This document shows, piece after piece, positions 16,970-17,083 of a stretch of DNA of 64,000 nucleotides. The stretch lies in assembly GCA_024685275.1 (NCBI GenBank), contig JAIKVY010000187.1, positions 1,432 to 65,431 of the forward strand, read 5' to 3'. Origin of the DNA: Clostridia bacterium. GTDB lineage: Bacteria; Bacillota; Clostridia; Christensenellales; DTU072. The number at the start of each line of letters is the position of its first letter. The first letter of the stretch is position 1. The notes under the pieces are model-generated. The model was not told where the DNA came from. It saw only the letters and a program-made list of their open reading frames with translations, and did not search any database. The position numbers were made by a program, and so were the translations under genes.

Positions 16970-16990
16970 AATGTATGATTTTCCCGAACG

Positions 16991-17083
16991 TTATCGGCAA
17001 GGGAGAACCGCACACACGCCTTTATGAGTTAATAAGGATTTACGTATGCGATTATAAATATCTTGTTGATAATCCCTTAGCAT
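16991..17083 (-). CDS. N-terminal 30-codon segment of the same helicase, ended by an in-frame TAA inside motif I
   Basis: GAGGTG RBS + ATG 17083. MLRDYQQDIYNRIRKSLLTHKGVCAVLPCR-TAA-RSGKSYIMKEI, in the same frame as 15752..16969. Confidence 0.7.
   Translation of the reverse strand: MLRDYQQDIYNRIRKSLLTHKGVCAVLPCR

Follow-up and report, generated by a model that had tools for sequence, protein, structure and literature searches.

How does a phage make its helicase when an in-frame stop codon lies inside the P-loop, or does it make the enzyme at all? The question is raised by a minus-strand gene in a 64,000-nt stretch of a Clostridia contig (hereafter the window), where the frame reads TGC CGA TAA CGT TCG GGA AAA across motif I. 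The original prediction was that ribosomes hop six bases over the stop, from one arginine codon to a synonymous one, or else that the gene is a very fresh pseudogene. Direct reading bore out every statement that it made about the sequence itself: a ribosome-binding site and an ATG open a frame of 30 codons, which stops at TAA and continues in the same frame (Table 1). The first segment, MLRDYQQDIYNRIRKSLLTHKGVCAVLPCR, ends on the codon CGA (16996..16994). After the TAA the frame runs through CGT (16990..16988), TCG (16987..16985), GGA AAA TCA and on into an open reading frame of 405 aa (15752..16969). The annotated 405-aa product (P0001) begins at the ATG at 16969. The stop is already in the public record, this product being MCR4661667.1 on a 77,122-bp contig of a Clostridia metagenome-assembled genome (MAG). 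With the six bases removed, the gene encodes an SF2 helicase (Pfam ResIII PF04851, E = 1.3e-17; Helicase_C PF00271, E = 1.2e-15). It is part of a phage replication module ordered as a PDDEXK-like nuclease, a DUF669 protein, tRNA-Gln, a D5-like primase-polymerase, the helicase, a GIY-YIG endonuclease and a VRR-NUC nuclease, and it adjoins the primase in every relative examined.

Table 1. Positions in the window of the two interrupted genes and of neighbouring features
Feature	Position	Strand	Basis or remark
SegE-like GIY-YIG homing endonuclease, 248 aa annotated (P0241; longest ORF to 15749)	14898..15644	-	Pfam; directly 3' of helicase
Helicase segment 2 (RSGKSYIMKEI... to stop)	15752..16990	-	Pfam; no further stop or frameshift
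CGT, original Arg of LPCR/SGKS, proposed landing codon	16988..16990	-	CGT in L001-L003, CGC in L214/L216
In-frame TAA of helicase	16993..16991	-	
6-nt helicase insert CGA TAA	16991..16996	-	Absent from L001, L002, L003, L214, L216 and from 119/119 proteins
Helicase segment 1, codons 1-30 (MLRDYQQ...AVLPCR)	16994..17083	-	Conserved vs 119 homologues
Helicase start ATG	17083..17081	-	Relatives begin at aligned position
Shine-Dalgarno-like GAGGTG	17096..17091	-	7 nt 5' of helicase ATG; read directly
tRNA-Gln(TTG)	19690..19764	-	Upstream of primase
Glycosylase segment 2 (LISQWRELNSIF... to stop)	24081..24485	-	pN/pS 0.17 among carriers
Twin hexamer site CTT TGA CTT, TGA 24488..24486	24483..24491	-	TGA in L006, L067/L068, L069, L070, L207, L208; TGG in L004/L005
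Glycosylase segment 1, codons 1-17 (MRIWHYKILPYLPNSQL), take-off CTT at 24491..24489	24489..24539	-	Pfam Pyr_excise E = 5e-12
Terminator-like hairpin 24661..24640, then promoter-like TTGACA-17-TAATAT 24613..24585	24585..24661	-	5' of glycosylase; consensus scan only

Comparison with relatives identifies the interruption as a clean in-frame 6-nt insertion inside motif I (the P-loop), between its Arg and Ser codons. All 119 full-length homologues among the best 120 matches (70-82% identity, 432-452 aa) read LPCR[SA]GK[ST] with nothing between. DNA alignments with five relatives (L001, L002, L003, L214 and L216) each contain one clean gap of exactly 6 nt, the relatives having TGC CGT/CGC TCN GGN where the window has TGC CGA TAA CGT TCG GGA. 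Because CG is repeated, the phase of the insert is ambiguous, ATAACG or GATAAC being equally valid; read as CGA TAA, it consists of a synonym of the neighbouring Arg codon followed by the stop. The proteins and the five DNA alignments confirm the claim that removing the stop and one Arg codon restores the canonical P-loop spacing; plain readthrough would leave two extra P-loop residues, seen in no homologue. The two codons flanking the stop had also been said to be readable by a single tRNA, and tRNA-Arg(ICG) can indeed read both CGA and CGT.

The programmed nature of the interruption fared less well than the insertion itself. In an alignment of orthologues the hexamer was neither present nor conserved in relatives: there is no other carrier among the best 120 homologues, where P0001 is the sole shortened product and its cluster has one member from one contig, and none in IMG/VR, where the search pattern allowed any purine-purine stop and returned chance matches only. 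A contig scan with too loose a hexamer pattern gave chance matches throughout (all 120 matches listed and 16 viral matches). We found no near-identical phage among GenBank phages, whose best isolates share less than 40% protein identity. As the insert is a singleton, conservation cannot show that it is programmed. Of what was first put forward, the six-base P-loop insertion thus stood, and its programmed nature is not supported, the insert being known from one assembly only; a null allele had been named from the start as the other outcome. The single source, a MAG contig with no independent assembly in the collections searched, would also suit an assembly or sequencing artefact, or a minority variant raised to consensus in a metagenome-assembled contig. 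We judge this highly improbable: a non-repetitive 6-nt insertion is atypical of short- or long-read assembly errors, and a related hexamer on the same contig, in the glycosylase gene described below, is backed by seven independent assemblies.

A fresh null allele is a serious possibility, somewhat less likely than not and nearly level with a hop. It would be a recent and real 6-nt insertion that inactivated the SF2 helicase, leaving the 30-aa peptide only and perhaps a 405-aa fragment without motif I; the likeness to a hop site would be a by-product of microhomology-mediated insertion. That the insert is a singleton favours this reading, as do the strength of UAA as a stop and the CG...CG repeat flanking the insert, a 2-nt microhomology that could by itself yield synonymous flanking CGN codons. 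The phage moreover has a second helicase domain, in its D5-like primase, which might let it do without the SF2 helicase for a time. The gene carries no pseudogene signs of the kinds looked for (extra lesions, relaxed constraint): there is no other stop or frameshift across its 441 codons, and lineage-specific dN/dS is about 0.20, a value inside the range (0.18-0.29) of the branches leading to three intact relatives. This unimpaired frame and normal dN/dS fit a tolerated insert and a very recent one alike, and a very recent lesion would look the same. The nature and setting of the lesion argue against a null allele. An in-frame 6-nt insertion that brings in a stop is an unusual type of lesion, it struck motif I, which takes up 8 of the 441 codons, its architecture matches that of a hexamer kept by selection in the same genome, and the helicase keeps its place beside the primase among the relatives.

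Few routes could lead past the stop. Frameshifting to +1 or -1, including a prfB-like shift at the CUU UGA C of the glycosylase gene, was rejected, all shifted frames stopping within 3-21 codons: at the helicase a stop follows after 8 codons in the +1 frame and after 21 in the -1 frame, and the glycosylase +1 frame ends after 8. A suppressor tRNA was rejected as well; the sole tRNA of the window, tRNA-Gln(TTG), has an ordinary anticodon. The CCGA/UCGG complementarity noted around the helicase stop is present, and the hairpin built on it was not upheld, the local fold being no better than that of shuffles (z = -0.55); no stimulatory element is evident at this site. Readthrough of the UAA by a near-cognate tRNA, giving LPCRxRSGKS (GVCAVLPCRxRSGK), is in our estimation the least probable of all the readings. 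Prokaryotic genomes widely contain conserved in-frame stops ascribed to readthrough (PMC7918605), the helicase stop is followed by C, and the glycosylase site has both a TGG variant and extra residues modelled in the first turn of a helix, so that readthrough is plausible there. At the helicase it meets a strict Walker A spacing: 119 of 119 homologues lack any residue between the R and the S/A of motif I. Nor does any helicase relative have a sense codon where the window has its stop, and of the three stops UAA leaks least. Because shifted frames dead-end, readthrough adds two residues to the P-loop and re-initiation at the ATG at 16969 loses motif I, we infer that a hop is the one route to active helicase. 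With no homologue tolerating a residue within LPCRSGKS and the least leaky stop in place, the gene would either yield a trickle of product by a +6 hop or be dead. Only the hop product, in which the stop and one flanking codon are skipped and 9 nt yield one amino acid, would match all 119 homologues.

In such a hop, ribosomes would translate 30 codons and halt with peptidyl-tRNA-Arg(ICG) on CGA in the P site, held by a weak I:A wobble pair, and with UAA-C, a poor fourth-base context, in the A site. Most would terminate there. In a small fraction the peptidyl-tRNA would unpair and re-pair on CGU six bases 3', decoding would resume at UCG, and the product would be a helicase with the wild-type LPCRSGKS and the junction peptide GVCAVLPCRSGK. 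The site would then be a severe built-in attenuator. A functional +6 hop at the helicase is the reading that we tentatively place first, at less than even odds and by a narrow margin over a fresh null allele. In its favour we count the exact in-frame insertion, the design shared with a second site, the conservation of that twin, the intact gene and the dead shifted frames. Against it we count that the insert is a singleton, that no stimulator is apparent, that the phage has a second helicase domain, that CG microhomology flanks the insert, that the twin perhaps does not hop, and that the stop is UAA. Both release factors recognise UAA, no stop is harder to pass, and hops in synthetic constructs are inefficient.

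The twin lies in a glycosylase gene, where the original prediction had noticed the same arrangement at 24486. It was right to do so: direct reading gives CAG CTT TGA (24488..24486) CTT ATT, within ...CCA AAT TCT CAG CTT TGA CTT ATT AGT CAA TGG CGA GAA. The hexamer is an insertion here too, since the motif LPxSQL-IAQWRE has no extra codons in about 115 of the 120 protein homologues listed and in 58 of 58 IMG/VR loci, a collection in which we found no carriers of the glycosylase hexamer. Carriers read CTT TGA CTN in seven lineages (landing codon CTT, CTA or CTC), and an eighth lineage (L004/L005) reads CTT TGG CTT. Two of the TGA carriers, L207 and L208, were added by a targeted metagenome scan. 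In each of the eight lineages a strong Shine-Dalgarno sequence and a start codon lie 17 codons upstream.

Protein alignment alone is misleading at this position. Five database proteins show 'WL' at the insert; in the DNA the W is TGA in four of them, and TGG only in L004/L005. In P0123, P0142, P0153 and P0176 (L006, L067/L068, L069 and L070), which come from short contigs, the Trp is an artefact of gene calling with table 4, under which the genes neighbouring these four overrun their true TGA stops. A code in which TGA means Trp (table 4) was ruled out: TGA terminates 19 of the 86 ORFs in the window, several as ATGA overlaps, and the neighbouring gene in carrier contigs also ends at TGA. Because TGA is a true terminator elsewhere in these phages, the glycosylase stop is best explained by site-specific recoding, neither by a pseudogene nor by a variant genetic code. 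In the glycosylase of a non-carrier, L057 601..612 (IMGVR_UViG_3300032038_000171), we observed a TAG at the conserved Trp-4 (GTG CGA TTA TAG CAT), apparently either a simple nonsense mutation or a sign that the phage recodes TAG, and unrelated to the hexamer.

The glycosylase carriers are 50-87% identical beyond residue 36. Their pN/pS is 0.33 over codons 2-17 and 0.17 downstream of the stop, with a synonymous divergence of 0.42 upstream and 0.71 downstream, so that both flanks are under purifying selection. These values indicate that the stop persisted through a long divergence while the genes remained functional on both sides of it. TGG is a single transition away, yet TGA was retained in seven lineages, with TGG in one, which argues that the stop itself is selected. 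In the window, the terminator-like hairpin followed by a promoter-like site (Table 1) makes the glycosylase seem to open a transcription unit after a 676-aa gene. A PDB sequence search and Foldseek with the glycosylase gave no significant match.

The carriers do not form a clade. For the glycosylases of the window, of L069 and of L070, the nearest relatives (82-92% identical beyond residue 36) lack the six bases, and N- and C-terminal similarities are decoupled. The window enzyme shares 73% of its N-terminus and 92% of its C-terminus with the non-carrier P0121, against 91% and 52%, respectively, with the carrier L004; two carriers, L069 and L067, are 96% identical in the N-terminus and 59% in the C-terminus. 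At the DNA level, the window and the non-carrier L217 are 91-98% identical from about codon 35 on and 58-69% over the first ~100 nt, a segment in which the window is 93% identical to the carrier L006. All carriers have TCT at Ser-15 together with CTT at Leu-17, whereas the non-carrier Ser codon is TCT in 3/31 and the Leu codon CTT in 6/53. The simplest reading is that the hexamer arose once and that a segment of ~100 nt was then transferred between backbones by recombination. These comparisons together indicate a hexamer that is old, maintained by selection and moved between gene backbones by recombination.

Whether ribosomes hop over the glycosylase stop or read it as Trp is a question on which we place roughly equal odds. 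UGA-to-Trp readthrough is a serious rival here because one relative has TGG and because the extra residues can be modelled in the first turn of a helix. UGA-C is the leakiest stop context. In Firmicutes a few per cent of UGA is decoded as Trp (PMC7918605); for B. subtilis the figure is about 6%. The TGG at the stop position of L004/L005 is a feature expected under readthrough. In AlphaFold models the catalytic helix takes up the two extra residues in its first turn; it spans residues 14-30 in a non-carrier and 16-31 in a carrier, with a local pLDDT of 96 and 84, respectively. Structure prediction gave no separation between the two outcomes. Several features of the sequence support a hop. The take-off codon is CTT, which would hold a weak G:U wobble, in 8/8 carrier lineages, and the landing codon is CTN in all eight, a pair of codons that one tRNA can match, whereas non-carriers have CTT at the corresponding Leu in 6/53 cases and TTA/TTG in 32/53. 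The stop arrived with a duplicated codon rather than from a mutated Trp codon, and the retention of TGA in seven of the eight lineages, a single transition from TGG, points the same way. A hop would give ...LPNSQLISQWR; readthrough would give ...LPNSQLWLISQWR. The stop region of the window glycosylase (24455..24525, minus strand) folds better than shuffles (z = -3.9), with an outer AAUUCUC/GAGAAUU stem around a UUGACU/AGUCAA hairpin that holds the UGA and the landing codon. The hairpin is significant in the window only, and a conserved RNA structure was rejected: in other carriers only the UCUC/GAGA and UUGA/UCAA cores recur, with no covariation.

The only two interrupted genes of the window share one design, a codon, a stop and a synonymous codon. 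Across ~260 kb of the window and related loci, synonymous codons flank just 8 of 249 (3%) unrelated single-stop junctions between open segments. Both inserts sit in the most conserved catalytic motif of their enzyme, the helicase one in the P-loop and the glycosylase one five codons before the invariant WRE. Because the design recurs against this low background, because both examples fall in a catalytic motif and because one is kept by selection, hexamers of this kind appear to exist as a selected class, and we take the helicase hexamer to belong to it together with the glycosylase CTT-TGA-CTN. Both sites are good candidates for places where ribosomes bypass or read through a stop. As readthrough is possible at the twin, hopping may play no part in how the class works.

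A homing endonuclease gene lies next to the window helicase, and others precede some of the hexamer-bearing glycosylases. In the window, a GIY-YIG gene stands between the helicase and a 53-aa ORF followed by VRR-NUC; L003 lacks it. L214 and L216 also have the order helicase, GIY-YIG, VRR_NUC, with endonucleases 76% and 63% identical to that of the window and with uninterrupted P-loops. The LPCR Arg codon is CGC in these two endonuclease-positive relatives (L214, 2575..3909; L216, 2580..3911) and CGT in L001, L002 and L003, a small sample. At the glycosylase, an HNH (I-HmuI-like) gene lies directly upstream in L006, and a GIY-YIG gene directly upstream in L207 (JAEIGA010000054.1, a 141.5-kb contig; reverse-complement 11646..12461). 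A truncated upstream ORF of L069 (3..182) matches the C-terminus of the L207 enzyme at 62% identity (E = 2.5e-21). L207 and L069 thus share a GIY-YIG family, with 72-87% nucleotide identity from the 3' end of the endonuclease into the first ~100 nt of the glycosylase, while the C-terminal parts of their glycosylases are ~50% identical. Upstream regions of non-carriers contain no match to the L006, L207 or L069 enzymes, and their 45 distinct upstream ORFs have no match to a Pfam endonuclease family, two being endonuclease-like by eye; IMG/VR holds no useful relatives of the endonucleases. An adjacent upstream endonuclease thus occurs in 3/8 carriers and in 0-2/53 non-carriers (Fisher p 0.0016-0.014, with unequal flank lengths, different databases and related lineages).

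One account of how the helicase insert arose is immunity: the hexamer would disrupt the site cut by the neighbouring GIY-YIG enzyme, in the way that the T4 gene 60 insert disrupts the target of MobA. Being an account of origin, it is compatible with either a hop or a null allele and stands outside the choice among hop, null allele, artefact and readthrough; we consider it improbable. The T4 precedent (10.1101/2022.08.31.505936), the position of the GIY-YIG gene directly 3' of the helicase as an insertion relative to L003, the enrichment of upstream homing endonucleases among carriers of the twin, and the mosaic ~100-nt segment around the glycosylase hexamer all fit it. At the helicase the idea was not supported, as L214 and L216 keep uninterrupted P-loops beside related endonucleases. 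The hexamer also lies ~1.2 kb from the endonuclease gene, whose cleavage site is hypothetical, and the association at the twin comes from unequal flank lengths and non-independent lineages. A broader and still speculative proposal, which we think unlikely though less so than immunity at the helicase, is that stop-hexamers are tiny laterally spreading inserts, each a copy of a flanking codon plus a stop, which sit in the best conserved catalytic motifs of phage genes, are linked to homing endonucleases and are removed from the product by a +6 stop-hop. If this is true, the helicase site would be a young member of the class and the glycosylase site an old and widespread one.

A real hop would mean that functional phage genes are being discarded by gene finders and pseudogene filters. 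It would also mean that mobile elements or selection have in six-base inserts a new means of changing conserved DNA while leaving the protein unaltered. The analysis supplies two natural sites, CTT-TGA-CTN in seven phage lineages and a P-loop site at which only a hop could yield active protein. Even without a hop, the glycosylase is a clean case of a conserved leaky UGA brought in by an insertion. We found no earlier description of a natural CTT-TGA-CTN hexamer that is conserved and has a link to homing endonucleases.

Stop-hops between matched codons function in E. coli constructs (Weiss, Dunn, Atkins, Gesteland 1987; reviewed in PMC5009743), and the same 2016 review of recoding states of natural stop-hops that 'no occurrences are known' (PMC5009743); one would therefore be new. 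The synthetic sites resemble ours in that matched codons flank the stop, 9 nt yield one amino acid, and slow decoding of the A-site codon makes the peptidyl-tRNA pair again 6 nt downstream. They differ in being laboratory constructs, whereas the present sites are natural, one of them evolutionarily conserved, and known from sequence alone. In the terminase of Streptomyces phage phiHau3, 10-nt inserts are proposed to be bypassed (PMC10732093). There, too, short blocks absent from orthologues interrupt a conserved enzyme, and the argument is the conservation of the junction in homologues. The proposed trigger in phiHau3 is the rare sense codon UUA, with a change of frame and a link to the bldA tRNA, in contrast to the stop trigger and kept frame considered here.

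Two further systems bear mainly on the glycosylase. It has the same CUU UGA C core as the +1 frameshift site of prfB (RF2), with a weakly paired G:U wobble in the P site next to the poor UGA-C stop, and for this reason its outcome would depend on RF2 activity. Unlike prfB, the glycosylase has no Shine-Dalgarno-like stimulator upstream, and its +1 frame is unproductive; the helicase site (CGA UAA C) has no such likeness to prfB. Prokaryotic readthrough stops (PMC7918605) share with the glycosylase an in-frame TGA kept across species, a dN/dS below 1 and a TGG orthologue in one lineage. They are substitutions at existing codons, unlike a 6-nt insertion with a duplicated flanking codon, and the helicase stop differs again in being a TAA inside the P-loop.

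The fullest comparison is with T4 gene 60, whose 50-nt insert shields conserved DNA from MobA while leaving the protein unaltered, and whose cassette has had its HNH endonuclease replaced by GIY-YIG, or lost, in some clades (10.1101/2022.08.31.505936). The gap here is 6 nt instead of 50, we found none of the take-off stem-loop, nascent-peptide signal or Shine-Dalgarno-like element, the efficiency of a hop would presumably be far lower, and at the helicase related endonucleases coexist with an uninterrupted target. The likenesses lie in the architecture and its company: coding DNA of high conservation carries an insert that would be skipped at translation, the take-off codon is matched by the landing codon and followed by a stop, homing endonucleases are apparently linked to the insert, which is kept where the endonuclease has been lost, and the distribution among close relatives is patchy. 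Should the hexamers prove to be laterally spreading inserts that ribosomes hop over, the T4 gene 60 cassette would have a counterpart of six bases, and stop-hops their first natural examples.
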